DNA from: Candidatus Eiseniibacteriota bacterium
GTDB taxonomy: Bacteria > Eisenbacteria > RBG-16-71-46
DNA: 10,952 bases
Assembly: GCA_031366795.1 (NCBI GenBank)
Contig: JANLOX010000308.1
Coordinates: 1 to 10,952 of the forward strand
Reading direction: 5' to 3'
The notes under the pieces are model-generated. The model had not been told where the DNA came from. It did no database searches and saw only the letters and a program-made list of their open reading frames with translations. Shown piece by piece: positions 205 through 10,951 of this stretch. Every line of letters begins with the position of its first letter. Within the stretch, counting starts at the first letter, position 1. Made by a program: the position numbers and the translations under genes.

Positions 205-1134
205 ATGAACCTGCGGCACGCCTATCGTCCCTGGCTCGCGATCATTCTGCTGGTCTTGGCAGCCTCCCTGTCGGCTGGGTGCAGCAGGTCCCCAACGAAA
301 CCGGTCGCGGTCAAACCGATTCCGCAGGCGGACGCCGACGACATCGTGCAGCTCGTCGCGACCACACTGTCCGCGGATAACGGCGGGTGGTACTGCCTCG
401 TGAAAGCCTTTTCCGAGTCGCTATCCTTCGCTCCGCCGGTGCTTCCGGTGACCGCGGGCGGCGGAGAGCGCTGGTCGGTGCCGCTGTCGCAGGGCAACAG
501 GATTCGCAACGACTTCTCGCTGTCGAAGGGCCAGATCACCTACCTGTTGCAGACGGGATGGATTCACGGCGACGGCACCAAAACCGCCTCGCGCGACACG
601 GCGTCGCGCGATCTCGAGTCGCTTGTTTCCGCTGATGGCGGACGATTCGAAGGGGTGAATGGGATCGAGCTCGGTACCTACGGCTGCCATTCATACGCAC
701 TCAACTCGACGATCGACAGCACGTTCTTCGCCACGAATCTCGCGGCGAGCGATCCCGATACCATCGAGTTTAGTGGGTTCCTCGACGACTCCTGCTTCGC
801 GATCGTGCATAGCACCTTCATGCCGGGGGCATCGGGGCGTTATTGGTACCACCAGAACTTCGCCGACTACACGCTGCGCATCCCCAAGACGGCGCTGATT
901 TCGTCGCCTTACCCGGTGGGATCGACCAGCGAAATCCATTGGAACATCGAGGCCTACGGGCTCAACACACCGGGGCGGCAGGACTTTGGGTTCGGCGAAT
1001 TGATCGAAGCCCGCATGACCTTCGACGGCACGCCCGTCGGCCGACTGGAACTGGCGGACGTTTCCAGCGATCCTTCGTGGTCATACCGCTACACGGTCAA
1101 CCTCAACACCGGCCAGATCGCCCGACTGCCCTAG
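205..1134 (+). CDS. Hypothetical lipoprotein, 309 aa, probably beta-rich
   Basis: ATG at 205 with GAGG at 195-198. Basic n-region (R4, R8), hydrophobic core and lipobox LSAG-C26 (TGC at 280-282), followed by a Pro-rich tether (SRSPTKPVAVKPIP). No catalytic family recognised. Confidence 0.8.
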   Translation: MNLRHAYRPWLAIILLVLAASLSAGCSRSPTKPVAVKPIPQADADDIVQLVATTLSADNGGWYCLVKAFSESLSFAPPVLPVTAGGGERWSVPLSQGNRIRNDFSLSKGQITYLLQTGWIHGDGTKTASRDTASRDLESLVSADGGRFEGVNGIELGTYGCHSYALNSTIDSTFFATNLAASDPDTIEFSGFLDDSCFAIVHSTFMPGASGRYWYHQNFADYTLRIPKTALISSPYPVGSTSEIHWNIEAYGLNTPGRQDFGFGELIEARMTFDGTPVGRLELADVSSDPSWSYRYTVNLNTGQIARLP

Positions 1135-1170
1135 GCACGGCACAGCGCGCATCCGGCCTTGGAGGCTGCG

Positions 1171-2166
1171 ATGCTCGGATTCGCGCTGTTGCCGTTGCTG
1201 GTGGCGATGCCCGTTGCTTCATCTGGGCTCGTCGCTCCCCTCGCCCACACCTACTCGATCGTCGCGCGTGATTCCGTGACCGGCGAACTGGGCGTCGCCG
1301 TCCAATCCCACTACTTCAGCGTGGGCCCCGTCGTTCCGTGGGCCGAGTCCGGCGTGGGCGCCATCGCCACGCAGTCGCTGGTGCTGATCGACTACGGCCC
1401 GCGCGGGCTCGACCTGATGCGCACCGGCATGACCGCGCAGCAGGCGCTCGACGCGCTCAAGGCCGCCGACGCGGGCGTCGACGGCCGCCAGGTCGCGATG
1501 GTCGATGCGCACGGCAACGTGGCGGCGCACACCGGCAAGTCGTGCATCCCATCGGCCGGCATGCACACGGGTGCCCAGTATTCGGTGCAAGCCAACCTGA
1601 TGAGGAACGACAAGGTGTGGCCCGCGATGGCCGCGGCGTACGAGAGCGCGCAGGGCGATCTCGGCGAGCGCATGTTGCAGGCGCTGGAAGCCGGCCAGCG
1701 CGCGGGCGGCGACATTCGTGGCAGCCAGAGCGCGGCGATCCTCGTGGTGAAGGGAACTCCCAGCGGACGGCCGTGGGCCGATCGTGTGCTCGACCTCCGC
1801 GTCGAGGACAACCCGCTGCCCTTGGTGGAGCTGCGCCGGCTGATGCGGCTGCGGCGCGCTTACAACCTCGAGGACGCGGGCGACAATTTCATCTCGGACA
1901 AGAAATTTCCCGAGGCGATGGAAGCCTACGAAGCCGCGATGAAGCTCGCGCCCGATGTCGTGGAGCTGCAGTTCTGGGCTGCCGTCTCGATGCTGACCAA
2001 CGGCCGCGAGGCGGAAGGACTCATGCTGTTCCGCAAGGTATTCGCGAAGGAGAAGCGCTGGGTCGCGCTGGTGCCACGGTTGGCGCAGGTGGGGCTGTTC
2101 CCGAACAACCCCGACAAGCTCGCGAGGGTCGCGGCGCAGGCGAAGGGCTCAACCGCGCCGCAGTGA
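1171..2166 (+). CDS. DUF1028 family (Ntn-hydrolase-like) protein with N-terminal leader and C-terminal TPR-like helices
   Basis: DUF1028 motifs TYSIVARD, GVAVQSHYFSVG, GAIATQS, RQVAMVD, GGDIRGSQSAAILV and DLRVED. ATG 1171 is preferred over TTG 1159 because GGAGG lies at 1161-1165. The tail EAMEAYEAAMKLAPD...FWAAVSML..GREAEGLMLFRKVF is TPR-like. Confidence 0.88.
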   Translation: MLGFALLPLLVAMPVASSGLVAPLAHTYSIVARDSVTGELGVAVQSHYFSVGPVVPWAESGVGAIATQSLVLIDYGPRGLDLMRTGMTAQQALDALKAADAGVDGRQVAMVDAHGNVAAHTGKSCIPSAGMHTGAQYSVQANLMRNDKVWPAMAAAYESAQGDLGERMLQALEAGQRAGGDIRGSQSAAILVVKGTPSGRPWADRVLDLRVEDNPLPLVELRRLMRLRRAYNLEDAGDNFISDKKFPEAMEAYEAAMKLAPDVVELQFWAAVSMLTNGREAEGLMLFRKVFAKEKRWVALVPRLAQVGLFPNNPDKLARVAAQAKGSTAPQ

Positions 2167-2255: not shown

Positions 2256-3008
2256 TTATTCCATCAACTCGCGCAGCCGCGCGTAGCCGGCGCGGCTCAC
2301 GGGCAGCTCGCGGCCGTCCTTCAAGATCGCGACGCGGCTGTCCTTGGCGTAGGGCTCGAGGCGTTCGAGGCGGTCCAAGTTCATCAGGTACGAGCGGTGA
2401 ATGCGCACGAAGCGCGCGGGATCGAGCGACTCCTCGATATCGCCGAGCGTCTGCCCCTTCAGGTAACGCTCGCCACCCGCGTGGATGCACACGTAGTCGT
2501 CCTGCGCCTCGATGTAGTCGACCTTCTCGACGCCCAGCACGTGCACCTTGGCCTGGTCGCGCACGAGAATACGCTCCGCCGGCTTGCGGTCGGGGCGTGC
2601 ATCCGCCGCGAGCCGCGTCGCAGAGACCACGGACGGCTTGCCAATGCGCGCGCGCGCATGGTTCAGGGCGTCCGCCAGCCGCTCGGGGCTGAACGGCTTG
2701 AGCAGGTAGTCGGCCGCGTGGACCTCGAAGGCTCGCAGGGCGTGCTGGTCGTACGCCGTGACGAAGATCACCGCGAGGTCGCGGTCGATCAGTTCGAGCA
2801 CCTCGAAGCCGTCGAGCTTGGGCATCTGGATATCGAGGAACATCAGGTGGGGCGGCGTTTCCGCGACGACCTTGATGGCCTCGAAGCCATTCTCGCACTC
2901 GGCGACGACTTCGATGTCGTGATGGACGGACAGGTACTCGCGCAACAACTGCCGCGCGAGCGGTTCGTCATCGACGATGACGGCACGAATCCGTTCGGAT
3001 GCGTTCAT
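2256..3008 (-). CDS. LytTR/AlgR-family two-component response regulator
   Basis: Receiver motifs VIVDDEPLAR, FLDIQMP (phospho-Asp), FVTAYD and YLLKP. LytTR domain motif FVRIHRSYLMN..LPVSR. Its start overlaps the kinase stop (ATGA, 3005-3008). Confidence 0.96.
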   Translation of the reverse strand: MNASERIRAVIVDDEPLARQLLREYLSVHHDIEVVAECENGFEAIKVVAETPPHLMFLDIQMPKLDGFEVLELIDRDLAVIFVTAYDQHALRAFEVHAADYLLKPFSPERLADALNHARARIGKPSVVSATRLAADARPDRKPAERILVRDQAKVHVLGVEKVDYIEAQDDYVCIHAGGERYLKGQTLGDIEESLDPARFVRIHRSYLMNLDRLERLEPYAKDSRVAILKDGRELPVSRAGYARLRELME

Positions 3009-4132
3009 GCGACCTCCACGGCGGCGCCCGATGTGGGCGTGGCCGATTGCGTTTGAGTTGCGCCTGCTTCGGGTTCGCGATCGACTGCGGGCAACACGAC
3101 TTCCACACGATAGCGGCCGCCGGATTCAATGCATTCTACTCGCGTCGCGCCCGGATGCAGCGAGGCGAGGCGGGATTTCACGTTGGCCACGCCTAATCCC
3201 TGGCCGCGGCTTGCCGGGCGCTCGGGATCAGCGGGGTTCTCGACCGTGATCTCGAGGCGGCCCGCGATGCGGCGCGCGGTGAGCCGCACCACTCCCCCTT
3301 CGATCGAATGCGCGATGCCATGCGTCACGGCGTTCTCGACCAGCGGCTGCAGTAGCAGCGCCGGAACCGGGCACCCGAGTGCCGCGGGATCAATGTCGTG
3401 CTCGAGCTTCAAGCGGTCGCCGAAGCGCACGCGTTCGATCTCGAGGTAGCGCTCTGCAAGATCGAGTTCTTCCTCGAGCGGGATCTCGCGGCGGCCGCCG
3501 AGCGCCAGGCTGCGGCGCAGGAAGTCGGCCAGCATCACGCACATGGTGCGCGCGCGCACCGGGTCCGAGCCGGCCAGCGAGGCCACGGCGTTCAAACCAT
3601 TGAACAGGAAGTGCGGATTGATCTGCGCGCGCAACGCCCGCAACTCGGCGTCACGCGTCTGGACCTGCGCTTCCAGGGCGAGCCGCTCGGCATCGCGTGC
3701 GTCCTCGAACGAGATCATCAGGTAACTGAGCATCGTCACGCAGAAGAACAACAACGCGCCTAACGCGCTGATCAACGGCGCGTCGAAGCGGTAGCGCGAG
3801 AACGCGTCGGGGAAGCTCGGGTGATGCTGGAGCACGTACGCAACGACCGAACCCGCCGCCACCCACAGCGCGACCGAGACCACCAGCGAGAGCACGTGCG
3901 ACACCGTGAAGCGCAGCAGGTTGCGGCCGTCCAGCGGCAGCGCGCGGCACATCGGCCACTGCGCCATGCACATGAAGGCCGCCAGCAGCGTCAGCGGCGC
4001 GCCGATCAGCGCCCCCTCGAGGAGGCCGCGATGCTCGGGCACGGCCAGCGTCGCGCTGACCAGCGCCACCACGGGCAGCCACGCGGCGAGATAGAGCTCG
4101 ACGCGAATCCGGCGGGCAAGGACCGGATGCAT
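3005..4132 (-). CDS. LytS/YehU-type membrane sensor histidine kinase
   Basis: About 4 N-terminal TM segments, H-box LRAQINPHFLFNGLN, YLEIERVRFGDRL, N-box LQPLVENAVTHG and G-box GQGLGVANVKSRL. Start placed at ATG 4132 (MHPVLARR), 1 nt after the upstream stop, rather than at 4174. Confidence 0.93.
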   Translation of the reverse strand: MHPVLARRIRVELYLAAWLPVVALVSATLAVPEHRGLLEGALIGAPLTLLAAFMCMAQWPMCRALPLDGRNLLRFTVSHVLSLVVSVALWVAAGSVVAYVLQHHPSFPDAFSRYRFDAPLISALGALLFFCVTMLSYLMISFEDARDAERLALEAQVQTRDAELRALRAQINPHFLFNGLNAVASLAGSDPVRARTMCVMLADFLRRSLALGGRREIPLEEELDLAERYLEIERVRFGDRLKLEHDIDPAALGCPVPALLLQPLVENAVTHGIAHSIEGGVVRLTARRIAGRLEITVENPADPERPASRGQGLGVANVKSRLASLHPGATRVECIESGGRYRVEVVLPAVDREPEAGATQTQSATPTSGAAVEVA

Positions 4133-4133
4133 G

Positions 4134-4919
4134 TCAGTTCTTGATTTCCACGCCGCCCATGATCGAGAACCCACGAATGATCAAGACCTTCGAAGGATTG
4201 CCCGCGATTTCCTTGCGGTTGTCCTCGATGGCGCCAAGGATCGCCACGCCTTCGTTCTGGATCACCCAATCGCCCGGAACGTAGAGATCGATGCCGCCCA
4301 TCAGCGCGAACACATCGAACACCGCCGGCCCTGTCAAGATGCCGCTGGGCCGCAGGTCGATCTCGCAGCCGCCCATGAATGCCGTCGCGTCACCCGTCTT
4401 GAAGTCGGGCGTGAACACGCGACGCGAAGCACTGCTCATCATGGCGAAGGCGCTGGTGTGCGCGCCGGTGTCGGCGGGTGTGGATGGGGGATCGGGAAAA
4501 CCCGCCCCCCTGCGGTAGCGCCCAACGCCGCGGATTCGCGAGCCGCGCGTCAGCATGTGCACGCCGAAGATGATGATGATCGTGGGCCAGAACAGCCGCC
4601 ACAGGCTGATGCTGATGAGATCGTAATTGTTGGCCAGCAGACCCGCGCCGAGAAACAGGTAGAGCGCGCTCTTCAAGCGGCCCGAGTTGGTGCTCGAATT
4701 GATGAGCTTGGCCAACCCAATGATGATGAAGATGGCAGGCCACATGCGGCTCACCTGCCGCCACACGTCCCCAATGCCCGGAACATCGAGCGCGTCGAGC
4801 AGGAACAACACCCCGACCAGGATGACGGCGAGACCAAGAATCAATCGCCCGGTGAAACGCGGTTGGAAGCCGTGGTCCGGGGTTGTGATTGGCGGGTTCG
4901 ACGTGCTCGGCGTGTCCAT
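4134..4919 (-). CDS. LiaF-like membrane protein (N-terminal LiaI/LiaF-type TM domain plus C-terminal DUF2154-like beta domain)
   Basis: TM helices with WP motifs (GLAVILVGVLFLLD, MWPAIFIIIGL, FWPTIIIIFG). C-terminal repeats AFMGGCEIDLR, ALMGGIDLYVPGDW, AILGAIEDNR and SIMGGVEIKN. GAGGAG at 4934-4929 lies 9 nt upstream of ATG 4919, which favours it over 4928 or 4991. Confidence 0.85.
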   Translation of the reverse strand: MDTPSTSNPPITTPDHGFQPRFTGRLILGLAVILVGVLFLLDALDVPGIGDVWRQVSRMWPAIFIIIGLAKLINSSTNSGRLKSALYLFLGAGLLANNYDLISISLWRLFWPTIIIIFGVHMLTRGSRIRGVGRYRRGAGFPDPPSTPADTGAHTSAFAMMSSASRRVFTPDFKTGDATAFMGGCEIDLRPSGILTGPAVFDVFALMGGIDLYVPGDWVIQNEGVAILGAIEDNRKEIAGNPSKVLIIRGFSIMGGVEIKN

Positions 4920-5004
4920 AGGGGGCATCTCCTCGCGTACTCGGCGCGGATCCGGTCGGGGTGAATCGGAGCGCTTGCCCCGCGAAGCCACCTGGCCTCG
5001 TGCA

Positions 5005-5022
5005 GGCCGGGATCTCCCGGCC
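5005..5022. repeat. Perfect 8-bp inverted repeat GGCCGGGA-TC-TCCCGGCC
   Basis: Read directly from the sequence: 5005-5012 is the reverse complement of 5015-5022. Confidence 0.7.
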
Positions 5023-5029
5023 CACAGCT

Positions 5030-5035
5030 AATCTA
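5030..5035 (-). promoter_or_regulatory. Putative sigma70-type -10 element (TAGATT) of the liaF-like/kinase/LytTR operon
   Basis: Minus-strand TAGATT fits TAnnnT. There is no recognisable -35 at 17 bp, consistent with activator dependence. It lies about 30 bp downstream of the direct repeats. Confidence 0.4.
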
Positions 5036-5066
5036 CGGCAGCTATTGGAGTTCGCTGGCCAGCTAT

Positions 5067-5103
5067 TCGGTGAATGGCGGTTGGGGATCGGTGAATGGAG
5101 GTT
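5067..5103 (-). promoter_or_regulatory. Putative LytTR binding site (direct repeat, 21-bp period)
   Basis: TCGGTGAATGGCGGTT (5067-5082) and TCGGTGAATGGAGGTT (5088-5103) are 15/16 identical and 21 bp apart. The minus-strand core is CCATTCACC. Confidence 0.7.
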
Positions 5104-5185
5104 TTCAGGGGATTCCTGACGCCCCGGAGCAGTATCCTGCGCGCGTACGCAGCTCCACGAGGCATTCTCACAGAGGAGGCCAGGG

Positions 5186-5629
5186 ATGCGGAAGAAGAAG
5201 GCGACGCGGAACAAGGCTGCTGCACGCGGGAAGGTCGCGAAGAAGAAGGCGGTGCGGCGGAAGACGACGGCGCGCGGGAAGAGCGCGAAGAAGAAGCGCA
5301 CGGCGCCGAAGCGTGCGGTGCGGAAGGCGGCCCGCAAGACCGCGGCGAAGCGCGCCGGGAAGAAGCGCGCCACGAAGAAGCGCGCCACGAAGAAGCGCGT
5401 CGCGAAGGTGGCGGCGAAACGCGCGAAGGCCGCGAAGCCTGCGAAGCGCCCGGCGGTAAAGGTGGTCGCGGCGATCCCCAAGCTCCGGCCGACAACGACC
5501 GAGATTCCCGTTGAAGAACCCGAGATCGAAGACGAATTCGAATCCGGAGATGCCCCCGAGCCGCTCGATCTGTTTCCGCCCGATCCGGCGGAGGCGAATG
5601 ATGATGAGGATACCGGGGGAAATTGGTAG
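5186..5629 (+). CDS. Histone H1-like Lys/Arg/Ala-rich protein with an acidic C-terminal tail
   Basis: Strong RBS GAGGAGG at 5173-5179. This frame has G/C-ending codons (AAG, GCG, CGG). Residues 1-101 contain 47 K/R and no D/E; residues 102-147 contain 17 D/E and no K/R (hand count). Confidence 0.8.
   Translation: MRKKKATRNKAAARGKVAKKKAVRRKTTARGKSAKKKRTAPKRAVRKAARKTAAKRAGKKRATKKRATKKRVAKVAAKRAKAAKPAKRPAVKVVAAIPKLRPTTTEIPVEEPEIEDEFESGDAPEPLDLFPPDPAEANDDEDTGGNW
5359..5399 (+). repeat. In-frame 15-bp tandem repeat (GAAGAAGCGCGCCAC x ~2.7) encoding KKRAT
   Basis: Units at 5359-5373 and 5374-5388, plus a partial unit at 5389-5399. Confidence 0.85.
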
Positions 5630-5651
5630 GAATGGAAGGCGGCGCGGGACG

Positions 5652-5674
5652 CGGGCGGTTTTCGAGACCGCCCG
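5652..5674. terminator. GC-rich hairpin between convergent genes, possible terminator or 3'-stabilising stem
   Basis: CGGGCGGT (5652-5659) pairs with ACCGCCCG (5667-5674), 22 nt after the histone-like stop. There is no U-tract on either side. Confidence 0.45.
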
Positions 5675-5747
5675 ATTCAGATCGCCCTCGACAACGGCAC
5701 CCTTCGAACTGCTCAAGACCCACGCTCAACGAAGCTCTCTTCGTCCA

Positions 5748-8700
5748 CTACGCCCCTTGGCTGCCGCGCAATCTTTCGTTGTCGATGAGCTGCCTGATCG
5801 CGCGCAAGGTAAGGTCCGCCTTGTCCAGTTCCCGCAGCACCGACCATTCACTTCTCAGTGACCGTGACAGGGCGACGGGCAAGGAACGCAGCCATGCGTC
5901 GATCGTCAGGTCCACGAACTCGCGCTTCTCCTCGAGGGTCAACTCGCGGGCCAGTAGCAGGCGATTGGCATCTTCGGCGTCGAGCAGTGTTTGAAGCACG
6001 GTCCAGCGCTTGCCCGGCTTCTCCACTGCCAGGGCCGCGAACGCGCCGCTCGAGGTGTCGCGAATCAACTCACTCTCGCGCGTGGCCCGGCTCTCGTGGT
6101 CCTTGGTCTCGTCCCAGCTGTCCGATTCCTCCGCGACGTAGCGCAAGTACATCATGGCGAACAGGCTGGTCGGCGCAACCAGTTCATCCCGCGCCTTCAC
6201 GTCGGCCCACAGTGAGGCAGCCGAGCGCAGCAGGTGCTTCTCGGTCGTCTCGGCGAAGCGGTGGCCGAACACCAGCGACACCGACTCTTTGACGAAAAAA
6301 GGCAGCTCGCTGGACATGATTTCGGAGTACCCGGGCACGAGTCGTTCGAGCACCACCGAGCCACGTTTGTCGAGGGCCGCCAGGTCCGAGGTCACGGCAG
6401 GAAGCCCCAGCGTTGTGCACGCCAGGTTGTAGACAATGGCGCGTGGCAGGGTGACACCCTCGGGCCACGCGTCGCGCAGGTCGCGATTGTCGGGCAGTAT
6501 TCCGCCGCCGCCCCACTCTTCGGGGTATTCGGGAATCGACCGGCTGTAATTGGTCGATCCGGTCGCACGAATGCGCACACGGGTCTGTGGCACGAGCCCG
6601 CCGAATGGTGCGATGATGGGGGCGATGCGTATCAACGTCTGGGTGTGCGCCTTGACGCCACTTTCCAGCAGGGTGGCCAATACCTCGTGGTCGGCAGCGT
6701 TGACCCTGACGGGCGCGCGTGTCTTTGCCGCGGCGGCGCGGTACTTCTGCGCCAAAGCGAGCGTGGCTTCCGGTGAATCGGCGCGAATGCCCTGCAGCGT
6801 GACTCCATCGGCATGGCTGAATTGCGCGATGACGCCTGCATGCCCGGGATCGAACCCGCCCCGGAAACCCGCGCGCCCGCTGCCGATGAGAAGGGTGACC
6901 TTCGGCACGGGAGCCGGGATACGCATGGCGCACTCGGCCAGCCGCCGCTCCGCCTCTTCTCGCCCCGCCAGGGCCAGGGTGTAGGCCGCGTCGGTGGCGA
7001 TCTTGCCGCTCTGCTCGGCGGTGTCCGACATCGCGATGAACACTCGCAGTCGCGCTTCACCGCCGTCGAAACGGGTGACGAACGTATCGGCGTTGGGCAG
7101 CCCCGTGATGCCGCGATTGCGCTCGAAGGCGACATAGAAGGCTTCCAGCAGGTCCGCCAGATGTGCGAGCGCCCCAACATTCTCGATCAGCGGCACCAGG
7201 CGCACCTTCGCCACCTTGGCCATCAACGCCGCGCGCTTCGACGCCGGAATTCTCGCCGACAGGAACCTGTCTACACGCTCGTCGGCGCCCTCGAACAGCC
7301 CTTCGACGGCCTGCAAGTAAAGAGTCCCTATCTTTTGCAGAGCCCCAATGTCGAATCTGGCGTTGACCTGCGGCACCGATAGCTCATTGATCGCGTTCTG
7401 CGAAGGCTCGAAGCCAAGCGTTTCGGCCGCCAGCAGGAAGAGAAAGTTGGCGCGTGCCACCGTCGCGAGCAGCTTGGAGATCTTCTCTTCGTCCTGCTCG
7501 AGCCACGGGTTAGGGACGCGGAAAAGCAGGTGTCGTTCCTCGCCAGGCACGATGCCGTATCGCAAGAGTGCCAGGACCACCTTCTCGGGCATGTCCAGCC
7601 ACTCGGCGCTGATGTTGCGGCCTTCGTAGTCCAGCAGCACTTCGTTGCACGCACCCAGCAGGTCGCCAAGCGTTTCATCGAACTCCTCGCGCGCTTTGAT
7701 GAGCGGGTTCCACTCCAGGTACGACAACGCGCGTCTGGCATGGCCCTCACCTCCGCCGGCCACCCGCTCGGCCAGCCGCAGCTGTTCGGCGCGATGGGTC
7801 GTGGAGTCGGGGTGCTTCGTGCCCGTGAGCCTCGGCGTCTCGCTGGTCGCGCCCTCCAGCCACTTTTCGCGGGCCGCCCTGAAGCTTTCCCTGTCGAGGG
7901 TGTCGAGAGCGGCGTAGCCAGCCTCGGTACACGTTGAGTTCCACACCAGGTCGGCCGGTGTCTTGAGGACAGCCGCGGGGGCGCTCGACCCGAGCCGCCC
8001 CTGGCGCTCGAGGCGCTCCTTGACTCGCTCCATGAAGACCGTCAATTCCTTCACGTCCTTCGATCCGTACGACAACCGCTGCCAGGTGCCGTAGCGTGCC
8101 GCCGAAGGTCCCGAGAACGCCGCGAAGGGAATGCCGCCCACGCGAGCGGTGACGAGGAAGTCGAAGGCGTCTTCGCTGGTCCTCACCACGGCACTCTCGC
8201 GGACACCGTTGCGCACGCGTTCGAACTTCTCGCCCACCAGGCCCGGGAAAGCCAGCGGCGAATAGAAGGTGCCCTCGAAGGGGGTGCGCTCCACGCCCAG
8301 CGACGCGAGTTCGTCGGCAGCGGCTGCCATGTAGTCGCGGCGCTCCCGCATGTAGGGCGAGGGCCGTCGCAACCTTGCCAGCGGGCTTTGCAGTGCCGCC
8401 AGCGCCCAGTCCTGTGCAAGCGTCGACGGGGTGGCCACCAACCACGCCGAGAGATTGGCAATGACCTCGCGGGCCATCACGCCGTTGCTCTTGATCTCGT
8501 CGCTCATCACCAGCCAGCACGCCCGTGCTCCGGTGGAGGCTCCGAACATGTCCATCTTCGACAGACCCGACAGCGTCACCACCCAGGGACGCCACTCAGG
8601 ATTGGAAAACGCCGGGTTGACGAACGCGCCGACGTAGTCGAGCCGCTGGTAAACAGCGTCGTAGAGCACGTAGGCCCTGTGCTTGACGCACACTCCCACC

Positions 8701-9323
8701 AACTCCTCCAGCAGTTTGCGCGGATAGACGCGACCGGTGGGGTTGTGGGGGTTGTTGATGATGACGCTCGAGATGCCGCCCTTAGCCAGCAGCTCTTCGA
8801 GCTCCTCCGGGTCGGGCAGGAAACTCGGCGAACTGGTCTGGAGCTCCACCAGCTTCTTGCCGGCGCGCTCGATGAACCAGTCGTACTCCCACGAGGGGCG
8901 GATGACGACAACGCCCGAGCCTTCAGCGCCCAGGACTTCCAACGCCATCACCAGGCCCGAGCGCGTGCCCGGCGTGAAGATGACCTCATCAGGCAGGAAG
9001 CGCACCTCGCTCGACGGATAGTCGATGAGGCCGTCGAAATTAAAGAACTCCGCCACCTCGCTGCGCACGTCCATGCGGCCCACGGCTGGGCCATAGCTGT
9101 GCACGCTGTTGCGAGTGATGCGCTGGGCTGCACGCGCGACCTCGGGATGCGGCGCGAAGTCCGCGTTCTTGTAGTCGCCCTGCGTGAGGTCGAGTGCCCC
9201 CACCTGCTGCACTCTGCGGGCAAACGCCCTGACCAACGGCTCGGGGGTGGCCATGGCCCTCACGGACAGCTGCATCTCGGGCGAAACCCCTTCGAGGCCA
9301 CCCCGTTCAACCATTCCTGTCAC
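5748..9323 (-). CDS. Bifunctional fusion: class I/II PLP aminotransferase (aspartate aminotransferase-like) plus archaeal-type phosphoenolpyruvate carboxylase (PpcA-like)
   Basis: Aminotransferase motifs: YGPAVG, FTPGTR, NNPHNPTG, YDAVY, SGLSK (K256), GAR and QRLSY. PpcA-like motifs in the expected order: PRLTGTKHPD, DYEGR, FRVPNPWLE, VPLIE, RVFIAMSD, GSGRAGFRGG, VTLQ, YSR, LPRAI..LGLP and terminal RGSQG. One open frame; the GTG start overlaps the upstream TGA. Confidence 0.88.
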   Translation of the reverse strand: MTGMVERGGLEGVSPEMQLSVRAMATPEPLVRAFARRVQQVGALDLTQGDYKNADFAPHPEVARAAQRITRNSVHSYGPAVGRMDVRSEVAEFFNFDGLIDYPSSEVRFLPDEVIFTPGTRSGLVMALEVLGAEGSGVVVIRPSWEYDWFIERAGKKLVELQTSSPSFLPDPEELEELLAKGGISSVIINNPHNPTGRVYPRKLLEELVGVCVKHRAYVLYDAVYQRLDYVGAFVNPAFSNPEWRPWVVTLSGLSKMDMFGASTGARACWLVMSDEIKSNGVMAREVIANLSAWLVATPSTLAQDWALAALQSPLARLRRPSPYMRERRDYMAAAADELASLGVERTPFEGTFYSPLAFPGLVGEKFERVRNGVRESAVVRTSEDAFDFLVTARVGGIPFAAFSGPSAARYGTWQRLSYGSKDVKELTVFMERVKERLERQGRLGSSAPAAVLKTPADLVWNSTCTEAGYAALDTLDRESFRAAREKWLEGATSETPRLTGTKHPDSTTHRAEQLRLAERVAGGGEGHARRALSYLEWNPLIKAREEFDETLGDLLGACNEVLLDYEGRNISAEWLDMPEKVVLALLRYGIVPGEERHLLFRVPNPWLEQDEEKISKLLATVARANFLFLLAAETLGFEPSQNAINELSVPQVNARFDIGALQKIGTLYLQAVEGLFEGADERVDRFLSARIPASKRAALMAKVAKVRLVPLIENVGALAHLADLLEAFYVAFERNRGITGLPNADTFVTRFDGGEARLRVFIAMSDTAEQSGKIATDAAYTLALAGREEAERRLAECAMRIPAPVPKVTLLIGSGRAGFRGGFDPGHAGVIAQFSHADGVTLQGIRADSPEATLALAQKYRAAAAKTRAPVRVNAADHEVLATLLESGVKAHTQTLIRIAPIIAPFGGLVPQTRVRIRATGSTNYSRSIPEYPEEWGGGGILPDNRDLRDAWPEGVTLPRAIVYNLACTTLGLPAVTSDLAALDKRGSVVLERLVPGYSEIMSSELPFFVKESVSLVFGHRFAETTEKHLLRSAASLWADVKARDELVAPTSLFAMMYLRYVAEESDSWDETKDHESRATRESELIRDTSSGAFAALAVEKPGKRWTVLQTLLDAEDANRLLLARELTLEEKREFVDLTIDAWLRSLPVALSRSLRSEWSVLRELDKADLTLRAIRQLIDNERLRGSQGA
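5751..7838 (-). other. ppcA: Archaeal-type PEP carboxylase-like domain (aa ~496-1191) of the fusion
   Basis: Catalytic His H504 in TKHPD, R602 in RVPNP, metal-ligand candidates E714 (PLIE) and D767 (MSD), R821 (FRGG) and R961 (LPRAI) match PpcA motifs recalled from memory (TQHPD, RVPNP, PLFE, RSD, FRG, LPRAI). Confidence 0.82.
8004..9266 (-). other. Aminotransferase class I/II domain (aa ~20-440) of the fusion
   Basis: PLP-Lys K256 (8556-8558), PLP-contacting N194, D222 and Y225, phosphate-binding R267, and alpha-carboxylate Arg R416 (8076-8078) are all present. Confidence 0.9.
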
Positions 9324-10951
9324 CGCCCCGGGTTCTGCATCAGATCCAGCATCCCCGGATCGCTCGATCCCTTCCCGCGCCCCTCCCCTTCATCCGGCAC
9401 GACATCGCCCTCACCCGGTGCCAGGAACAGATTCTTCTCGAGCCCATGCTGGCGGTCGTACAGGTCGCGGTAGCGGCCGTTCGCGGCGTACAGCTGCGCG
9501 TGATCGCCGCGTTCGACGATGCGGCCGGCTTCTACCACGAGGATCTGGTCGGCGCGGCGGATCGTCGAGAGGCGGTGGGCGATGACGAACGTGGTGCGGC
9601 CTTCCATCAGGTGGTTGAGCCCTGCTTGGATCAGGGCTTCGCTCTCGGAGTCGAGGCTCGAGGTGGCTTCGTCGAGGATGAGGATGCGCGGGTCGGCAAG
9701 GATGGCGCGAGCGATTGAGACGCGCTGGCGTTGGCCGCCGGAGAGTTTCACGCCGCGTTCGCCTACCACAGTGTCGAGGCCATCGGGGAACCGATCGGCG
9801 AATTCGTCGACACGGGCGATGCGGCAGGCTTCGCGGATCTGGAGCTCGGGCGCGTCGGGGTTCGAGAACGCCACGTTCTCGCGGATGGTGCCGGCGAACA
9901 GGAAGGTGTCCTGCAACACCACGCCCAACTGCGTGCGGTACGAGTCGAGGCGCACGCGCGACAGGTCGATGTTGTCGACGGTGACGGTGCCGCGCCCTGG
10001 TGAATGGAACGCGGAGACCAATCCGATGATCGTCGACTTGCCTGAACCGGATGAGCCGACGAGCGCGGTCACAGTACCCGCGGGCGAGTCGAACGACACG
10101 TCGTGCAGGACGGGCTTATCGGTTTCGTAGGCGAAGTCGACGTGGTCGAACTTCACGTCGCCCTTGATCACGGGCAGCACGCTTGTGCGATTCGGGTCGG
10201 CGTCTTCGCGCGTCTCGCTCAGCACTTCGCGCGTGCGTTCGAGGCCGGCGAGCGCTTCGGTCAACTGCGTGCCGATCGCCACGACCTGGAAGATCGGCGC
10301 GATCAGGAAGCCGAGGAACAACGTGTACGAGAAGTAACCACCGAGCGTGAGGGTGCCCTTCAAGATGCCGCTGGCGCCGAAGAACATGATCACGGCGCCG
10401 ACCAGGCCCAGCAGCAGCGAGCTCGACAGCTGCATCACCGACTGCGCAGTAAGTGTCGCGAGCACGTTGTCGAGCAGGCGCTTCACGCCCGCGGCGAATA
10501 CGTTCTGCTCGCGCTGCTCGGCGTGATAGCCCTTCACGGTGCGAATGGCGCCGAGTGATTCGGTGAGGCGGCCGGTGACGTCGGCGTTGATCTTGCCGCG
10601 CTCGCGGAAGATCGGGCGTAGCACGGTGAAGGCGCGGCTTAAGACCACGGTGAAGCCGATCAGCACGCTCGCGGCGACCAGCGTCATCGGCATATTGATC
10701 TGCAGCAGCACGACCAGTGACAGCGCCGCGGTGAGTAGCCCGCCCGCGAACTCCACGAGGCCGGTGCCGATCAGGTTACGCACGCCTTCGACGTCGGTCA
10801 TGATGCGCGATACAAGCGATCCCGTCTTGTTGCTGTCGAAGTAGGAGACCGACAACCGCGAGACATGCGCTTGCACGCGGCTGCGCATCTCGGCGATCAG
10901 GCGCTGCGCTTCCTTCGAGAGCAACTGCGTCAGCGTGTAGGACGAAGCGCC
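9320..10951 (-). CDS. ABC exporter, fused permease/ATPase (MsbA/MdlB-like), 5' end beyond the window
   Basis: TM domain followed by Walker A GSSGSGKST, Q-loop VLQD, signature LSGGQRQR, Walker B ILILDEATSSLD and H-loop IAHRLS. The frame stays open to the window edge (GASSYTLTQLLSK), so TTG 10924 is not the real start. Confidence 0.95.
   Translation of the reverse strand, partial: GASSYTLTQLLSKEAQRLIAEMRSRVQAHVSRLSVSYFDSNKTGSLVSRIMTDVEGVRNLIGTGLVEFAGGLLTAALSLVVLLQINMPMTLVAASVLIGFTVVLSRAFTVLRPIFRERGKINADVTGRLTESLGAIRTVKGYHAEQREQNVFAAGVKRLLDNVLATLTAQSVMQLSSSLLLGLVGAVIMFFGASGILKGTLTLGGYFSYTLFLGFLIAPIFQVVAIGTQLTEALAGLERTREVLSETREDADPNRTSVLPVIKGDVKFDHVDFAYETDKPVLHDVSFDSPAGTVTALVGSSGSGKSTIIGLVSAFHSPGRGTVTVDNIDLSRVRLDSYRTQLGVVLQDTFLFAGTIRENVAFSNPDAPELQIREACRIARVDEFADRFPDGLDTVVGERGVKLSGGQRQRVSIARAILADPRILILDEATSSLDSESEALIQAGLNHLMEGRTTFVIAHRLSTIRRADQILVVEAGRIVERGDHAQLYAANGRYRDLYDRQHGLEKNLFLAPGEGDVVPDEGEGRGKGSSDPGMLDLMQNPGR

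Follow-up and report, generated by a model that had tools for sequence, protein, structure and literature searches.

The archaeal-type phosphoenolpyruvate (PEP) carboxylases (atPEPC, the PpcA proteins) are described as stand-alone homotetramers with subunits of 55-60 kDa, and a 2020 review of enzymes at the PEP-pyruvate-oxaloacetate node, the source of this description, lists in its matched passages four types of PEP carboxylase (PEPC), none of them fused to another enzyme (PMC8100219). The subgroup-Ib aspartate aminotransferases (AspAT) are recognised, in the corresponding passages of a second paper, by an Arg/Asn/Tyr/Trp set of substrate-binding residues (PMC4927141). Here we describe a gene of a Candidatus Eiseniibacteriota bacterium in which a class-I aminotransferase (AT) and a PEPC-like domain of archaeal type share a single chain, a candidate for a bifunctional enzyme that forms aspartate; it lies in a stretch of 10,952 nucleotides (contig JANLOX010000308.1), which, taken whole, is called the window below. 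The fusion departs from the picture of a stand-alone 55-60 kDa subunit drawn in the passages of PMC8100219, its carboxylase-like domain being some 700 residues long and joined to an aminotransferase.

The fusion gene (5748..9323, minus strand) is one uninterrupted frame of 1191 codons plus a stop, with a GTG start and zero internal stops. That GTG, at 9323, shares the sequence GTGA with the stop codon of the ABC-exporter gene upstream, and an ATG at codon 4 (nt 9314-9312), where an identical 1188-aa database protein begins, is the more likely start. The chain divides into an AT half resembling subgroup-Ib AspAT and prephenate aminotransferases (7995..9323, aa 1-443), a short tether (7959..7994, aa 444-455), a conserved helical junction element (7839..7958, aa 456-495) and a 'long' PEPC half of archaeal type (5751..7838, aa 496-1191), all on the minus strand. 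Pfam places Aminotran_1_2 at aa 44-368 of the 1191-aa protein (E = 7.6e-33; 114.6 bits, cut-off 19.7) and PEPcase_2 (PF14010) at aa 541-1028 (E = 1.1e-35; 123.5 bits, cut-off 25), the two matches anticipated by an earlier, sequence-only reading of this DNA, which had proposed that a single 1191-aa frame holds both enzymes. That reading had also noticed that the second half has no ATG of its own, and indeed methionines stand at 431 and 578 with none between; within aa 435-520 no start-type codon occurs apart from the GTG of the conserved V460.

The frame is not peculiar to this window. A word-indexed search of ~5.8 billion proteins gave 427 matches among 7994 scored candidates, and all 120 full-length matches listed carry both Pfam domains, at 1082-1230 aa and 70-100% identity. 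Of 173 stretches picked out by pattern in species-representative genomes, 158 code for the same architecture, which puts it in at least 158 species-level genomes, all of them metagenome-assembled genomes (MAGs); 78 loci, likewise all from MAGs and some on megabase contigs, were kept. In the window, nt 7800-8050, where the sequence-only reading had advised looking for a stop, frameshift or chimeric join, are crossed by contigs of three sequencing runs (two studies) with no indel or joint, though these runs may be the window's own source samples and the contigs then speak for consistency only. No RNA run was listed among those containing this sequence. The single-chain architecture of AT half and PEPC half is thus real and not an assembly artefact.

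In the AT half, K256 (codon 8556..8558, minus strand, in the motif LSGLSKMD), a residue already named by the sequence-only reading, is the lysine that binds pyridoxal phosphate (PLP), as its alignment with the AspAT of T. thermophilus shows. All 25 full-length members keep it unchanged, together with the other cofactor-binding residues N194, D222, Y225 and R267 and with R416, Y77, W145, R121 and S255. The substrate-binding set that the passages of PMC4927141 give for subgroup Ib is present as R416, N194, Y77 and W145. By sequence the best PDB match is T. thermophilus AspAT (E = 1.2e-25), while the AT half of the full-length model lies nearest to that enzyme and to plant and bacterial prephenate aminotransferases (template-modelling (TM) score 0.76-0.82 by target, ~23-24% identity), with alanine, aromatic and kynurenine aminotransferases close behind. 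R121 aligns with K101 of the T. thermophilus enzyme, a residue which we take to recognise the distal carboxylate of dicarboxylic substrates. From these sequence features we infer a specificity for oxaloacetate and aspartate. GntC, the top NCBIfam match of this half, was discarded as its identity; the match is unspecific, every class-I AT paralogue in the window's genome also scoring.

The C-terminal half is homologous to canonical PpcA from T502 to R1186. In the alignment made for this half, of 17 fusion C-terminal halves with 20 canonical PpcA, 36 of the 49 columns invariant in the canonical proteins are identical in every fusion row: T502, H504, P505, D506, E547, E550, E561, D565, E567, G568, R602, P604, P651, P711, L712, E714, R760, S766, D767, G773, G814, G816, F820, R821, G822, Q844, P912, R915, R917, Y926, R928, P960, R961, I963, P975 and R1186. 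H504 (codon 7812..7814, minus strand), likewise named by the sequence-only reading, is the His of the (Q/K)HPD motif and stands in TGTKHPD where canonical PpcA has TQHPD, and the glycine-rich loop GSGRAGFRGG (6855..6884, minus strand, aa 814-823) has its G814, G816, F820, R821 and G822 in common with all canonical PpcA. The kept positions are presumably those of the motifs of bacterial PEPC, namely the HPD His, PLxE Glu, SD Asp, FRGG-loop Arg, PxxRxR and LPRAI arginines and C-terminal Arg, and would correspond to its His, its metal-binding Glu and Asp, the Arg of the Gly-rich loop and the PEP-binding Arg. An AlphaFold2 model of this half, built on the same alignment (mean pLDDT, the predicted local distance difference test, 88.9; predicted TM score, pTM, 0.90), has the fold of a PEPC: in the PDB the top Foldseek matches all come from 3ODM, the structure of the C. 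perfringens atPEPC with which comparison had been proposed (chains at E = 7.8e-21, TM 0.77-0.78 by target), and plant and E. coli PEPC rank after them.

At the same time the PEPC half is far from a typical PpcA. It scores 110-125 bits against PF14010 across the fusion clade, as against 380-480 for canonical PpcA, to which it is ~22-27% identical, and its ~700 residues include ~150 extra; among its several insertions, ~125 residues (about aa 1045-1170; 5814..6191, minus strand) form clade-specific helical insertions, absent from canonical PpcA, before the conserved terminal R1186-G-S-x-G-A. An exhaustive phmmer search with this half against 1.84 billion cluster representatives gave 119 matches. 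A single full-length protein (P0242, 1196 aa) and a set of fragments stand for the fusion clade among them; after these, at ~29-31% identity, come P0266 (905 aa) and P0274 (930 aa), the nearest non-fusion relatives, and then canonical PpcA of ~450-550 aa at 24-32%. A search of the ESM Atlas brought up PEPcase_2 clusters only. P0274 and P0266, which come from other metagenomes, have no aminotransferase domain and carry large insertions of their own. The former aligns with the fusion profile in hhalign with a probability of 99.8 (E = 4.5e-30, query residues 66-809) and has the motif variants of the fusion clade itself, TGTKHPD, DYEGR, PQIN and VRIVPLIEN. Because a protein lacking the AT domain shares these variants, the C-terminal half is to be placed in a separate 'long' branch of atPEPC that also exists unfused, and P0274 and P0266 are stand-alone members of this uncharacterised, 'long' archaeal-type PEPC-like branch.

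Between the two halves the sequence-only reading saw a linker of ~55 residues (aa 441-495), beginning with GRLGSSAPAA, which is found at aa 442-451. The junction is indeed located there, but most of it is a conserved helical element and only about 12 residues are flexible. W461, Y470, A472 and F481 are invariant among the 25 full-length members and V460, S463, C465, T466, D474, D477 and A484 nearly so, leaving aa 444-455 as the sole variable and low-confidence part. The full-length model (mean pLDDT 79.4, pTM 0.67) falls below a pLDDT of 50 only at aa 445-452, builds three helices in aa 456-491, with pLDDT 76-94 over the block of residues 451-490, and packs the helical element against the PEPC half, which it extends at the N-terminal end. 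As modelled, a flexible tether of ~12 residues would keep the two catalytic domains close to each other.

The most economical reading, and one in keeping with two halves whose active sites are both intact, is that of a coupled conversion of PEP and bicarbonate to aspartate. The C-terminal 'long' atPEPC half would turn PEP and bicarbonate into oxaloacetate and phosphate, the N-terminal subgroup-Ib-like half would transaminate that oxaloacetate to L-aspartate, with glutamate the likely donor, and the ~12-residue tether and helical element would hold the two together. Oxaloacetate is the sole organic product of PEPC and a textbook substrate of AspAT, and fusion partners usually catalyse consecutive steps. 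Two intact active sites, the strong conservation of both halves, the obligate fusion and the place of oxaloacetate between PEPC and AspAT all argue for such a bifunctional enzyme, and we would put the probability of this reading at roughly 0.55, with both activities, the AT substrate pair and any kinetic coupling being inferred. Substrate channelling is unsupported by these data. A much bolder version, a self-contained 'aspartate synthase' in which labile oxaloacetate passes directly from the PEPC site to the AT site, AT dimers and PEPC tetramers are forced together in one larger assembly, and PEPC gains a fifth architectural type, a single-gene module from CO2 to amino acid that has been passed among phyla of soil and sediment, is a speculation that we regard as doubtful, if attractive.

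A number of observations weigh against a coupled synthesis of aspartate. The PEPC half reaches 118 bits against the TIGR02751 equivalog, below its cut-off of 146.05, and nine columns invariant in canonical PpcA are changed throughout the clade (Q503K, M563L, K569R, T840G, loss of the Ser after Q844, Y893H, Y970T, P976A and L1189R), with Q503K adjoining the His of the catalytic motif, H504. The claim that this half holds the PpcA motif set stands as to the 36 columns and the 3ODM-like fold, but a plain PpcA it is not. P0274 shows that a 'long' relative can stand alone without an AT domain. The AT half falls far short of the AspAT equivalog models (NF041091, 87.8 against a cut-off of 550; NF004769, 59.8 against 617), and the alanine-aminotransferase model scores slightly above the AspAT models on it. 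The geometry between the domains is of low confidence; with a pTM of 0.67 for the full-length model their relative orientation is not confidently predicted, and we therefore make no claim of a tunnel or of facing active sites. The window's genome has one GTP-PEPCK and other class-I aminotransferases, a classical PEPC accompanies the fusion in 24 of 50 other carriers, and in the Acidobacteriota the classical enzyme is found in 5 of 24 carriers and 46 of 196 sampled non-carriers (Fisher p = 1.0). Finally, according to the passages of PMC8100219, aspartate competes with PEP as an inhibitor of atPEPC, and a tethered site that forms aspartate could therefore inhibit its own partner; such inhibition could cut both ways, as built-in feedback or as a counter-productive arrangement.

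In the window's genome, which is 96.3% complete, no other PF14010 gene, classical PEPC, PYC_OADA or ATP-PEPCK was found, and by itself this lack would suggest that the fusion is the anaplerotic carboxylase, but for the 24 other carriers that do have a classical PEPC. By the phyla in their record titles these comprise 16 of 16 Pseudomonadota, 3 of 4 Chloroflexota, 5 of 24 Acidobacteriota, and none of the 3 Myxococcota, 2 Eisenbacteria and 1 Riflebacteria (a sub-cut-off PF00311 match in G036 was excluded from the count). Seven Pseudomonadota genomes (G017, G025, G028, G029, G030, G039 and G040) contain two full-length classical PEPC matches each, which with the fusion makes three PEPC-type genes. 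PYC_OADA occurs in 7 of the 50 carriers and is missing from 25 of the 26 that also lack classical PEPC. A control set of 201 sampled Acidobacteriota genomes held 46 with classical PEPC (one of them, G098, unpublished), 27 with PYC_OADA and 129 with neither. With this control the signal disappears. The Fisher tests are not significant (p = 1.0, 0.37 and 0.16), so that the phyletic comparison has no discriminating power; it gives no sign of the fusion standing in for classical PEPC or pyruvate carboxylase, and a PEPC role of the fusion is neither favoured nor opposed by its distribution. Whatever the fusion does in the Pseudomonadota, it must do alongside a classical PEPC.

Among the alternatives to an enzyme coupling PEPC to AspAT, the one that survives best keeps both halves catalytic and lets the AT work on another pair, such as prephenate/arogenate, alanine/pyruvate or aromatic and other 2-oxo acids, with only an indirect link to the PEPC. 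In its favour are the prephenate, alanine, aromatic and kynurenine aminotransferases that score structurally almost as well as AspAT, the missed AspAT equivalogs with the slightly higher alanine-aminotransferase score, and the Arg that takes the place of the subgroup-Ib Lys. We nevertheless think it unlikely, as the best sequence match is still T. thermophilus AspAT, the basic R121 is kept at the position which we assume to read the distal carboxylate, and partners in a fusion tend to act in succession, oxaloacetate being the one organic product of PEPC.

Somewhat less plausible still is an AT half whose role is mainly regulatory, sensing a ligand such as aspartate or glutamate and tuning the PEPC half while performing no metabolic step. 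It has a precedent in the malic enzyme, where a non-catalytic PTA domain mediates the effects of aspartate and glutamate, and the same passages describe atPEPC as aspartate-sensitive and having no known allosteric activators (PMC8100219); in addition, the presence of a classical PEPC in 24 of 50 carriers suggests a specialised, perhaps differently regulated enzyme. Such a part fits poorly with an AT half that has kept its catalytic and PLP-binding residues without exception in all 25 members and is more conserved than the PEPC half (~80% against 68%). Pseudo-enzymes usually lose some of their catalytic residues.

That the 'long' PEPC-like half has changed its chemistry or substrate and is no PEP carboxylase at all is improbable as well, and more so than either possibility concerning the AT. 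One could appeal to the low identity with canonical PpcA and the TIGR02751 score, to the nine clade-wide substitutions at canonical-invariant columns together with the ~150 extra residues, and to the uncharacterised state of the entire 'long' branch, P0274 included; the 36 columns kept, which would cover all the motif positions that are catalytic in bacterial PEPC, and the strong fold match to 3ODM speak the other way. Last, the notion that assembly or gene calling joined two adjacent genes, for which the fragmentation of the window's MAG into 474 contigs could be cited, is practically untenable in view of the same single frame in 158 of 173 candidate stretches, some on megabase contigs, the two domains in all 120 listed full-length proteins, the conservation of the junction itself and the contigs of three runs that span it without indels.

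The fusion of AT and PEPC halves is obligate within its clade. Searches limited to shorter proteins, made with each half, brought to light no close relative in which that half stands alone; all they gave were members of the fusion family, either as fragments on short contigs or as frameshifted calls on long contigs, with Arg/Pro-rich out-of-frame tails. The public calls P0156, P0181, P0182, P0213 and P0217, on long contigs, are of the latter kind, truncated 'PEPC' or 'aminotransferase' proteins with such tails, and illustrate how frameshift errors can mimic a split fusion. Across phyla the AT half is ~80% and the PEPC half ~68% identical, and both are under strong purifying selection.

Carriers belong to the Acidobacteriota, Pseudomonadota (Gammaproteobacteria, many of them Steroidobacteraceae), Chloroflexota, Myxococcota (Myxococcales), Eisenbacteria and Riflebacteria, and the fusion is rare, being present in 5 of 201 evenly sampled Acidobacteriota genomes. 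On a maximum-likelihood tree of 64 rows, unrooted and shallow, the phylum labels are clustered (7 changes, compared with 24.4 in shuffles); an 18-member Pseudomonadota clade, a Chloroflexota clade and a Myxococcota/Eisenbacteria group are nested among acidobacterial sequences, and the window's copy is sister to that of a Myxococcales MAG at 90% identity. This pattern is consistent with a small number of transfers between phyla and vertical inheritance thereafter, with no donor named on an unrooted tree.

In the literature searched, as matched passages and with subscription journals outside its scope, an aminotransferase-PEPC fusion is not described, and in the matched text of the 2012 paper on the phylogeny of PF14010 the words 'aminotransferase' and 'fusion' do not occur. 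The suspicion that the fusion is undescribed thus holds for the publications covered, but the architecture itself is common in the sequence databases, as the 427 matches show, where hundreds of copies go under pipeline names such as 'phosphoenolpyruvate carboxylase' or 'aminotransferase/PEPC'. The family appears never to have been studied, widespread as it is in uncultured bacteria. If the proposed function is correct, this naturally occurring single-chain PEPC-aminotransferase would add an architecture to the four PEPC types reviewed, would offer a ready-made test case for the channelling of unstable oxaloacetate, and would reveal a route from PEP and bicarbonate to aspartate in abundant uncultured bacteria of soil and sediment. 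Efforts to direct anaplerotic or C4-type CO2 fixation towards aspartate-family products by engineering would gain a compact candidate part.

The gene of the fusion has no conserved neighbourhood and behaves as a free-standing unit. Upstream of it in the window is an ABC exporter with transmembrane and ATPase domains, cut by the window edge (9320-10951, minus strand), with which, given the GTGA overlap, it is probably co-transcribed here. When eight window neighbours were compared with the 78 fusion loci by tblastn, none proved to be conserved beside the fusion; ABC-type matches occur in 7 of the 78; just one of them, in L068, is strong, and it sits on the downstream side of the fusion, not upstream. 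Apart from that homologue, the pairing of exporter and fusion is seen at none of the 78 loci. All-against-all clustering of 718 flanking open reading frames (ORFs) likewise gave neighbour families that recur in at most 6 of the 78 loci, cluster 1 being an antisense shadow ORF of the fusion gene itself. Antisense to the fusion gene very long open frames are seen in GC-rich genomes (median 1295 aa in 18 loci: L002, L007, L016 and 15 others), and in the window one such frame runs at 8388-9473 (plus strand); naive longest-ORF callers choose these frames over the real gene.

Convergent to the fusion gene is a gene for a 147-aa basic protein, rich in Lys and Ala and with an acidic tail (5186-5629, plus strand), which has a weak, sub-cut-off match to NF038053 (histone H1-like DNA-binding protein). 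It contains a 15-bp tandem repeat at 5347-5407, and the long ORFs lying over it on the minus strand (5028..5729 and 4390..5481) look like shadow frames. A scan for terminators and promoters between the convergent genes, at 5550-5800, found none. Farther along, three minus-strand genes in a row (2256-4991), for a LiaF-like membrane protein at 4134..4991, for a LytS-type histidine kinase at 3005..4174 and for a LytTR response regulator at 2256..3008, look like a probable envelope-stress sensing module. A DUF1028 protein whose C-terminal tail is TPR-like (1159-2166, plus strand) follows, and the ORF before it, at 205..1134 on the plus strand, has no family match.

Set beside the systems already known, the two halves of the fusion each have a recognisable relative. 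The C-terminal half is like atPEPC (PF14010, TIGR02751, 3ODM) in its fold, its PF14010 match and the 36 of 49 columns with all the signature motifs, and unlike it in being larger, with clade-specific insertions, Q503K, K569R and other substitutions, and in being covalently joined to an AT. The N-terminal half shares the PLP- and substrate-binding residues of subgroup-Ib AspAT (T. thermophilus 1BJW/1GCK) and of prephenate aminotransferase (Arabidopsis 5WMH/6F5V), which are also its best matches in sequence and structure; it differs from them in having Arg (R121) where the subgroup has Lys, in a small insertion in an N-terminal motif, and in never being free-standing among its close relatives. 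The malic enzyme, as the passages of PMC8100219 present it, is another enzyme of the PEP-pyruvate-oxaloacetate node that carries a second enzyme-like domain, but its PTA-like domain is inactive and regulatory, while the AT domain of the fusion keeps a full set of catalytic residues. The two consecutive reactions proposed for the fusion are those performed by separate PEPC and AspAT in anaplerosis and in aspartate-forming C4 photosynthesis, where two polypeptides and a PEPC of the bacterial or plant type are employed in place of a single chain with a PEPC of the archaeal type.

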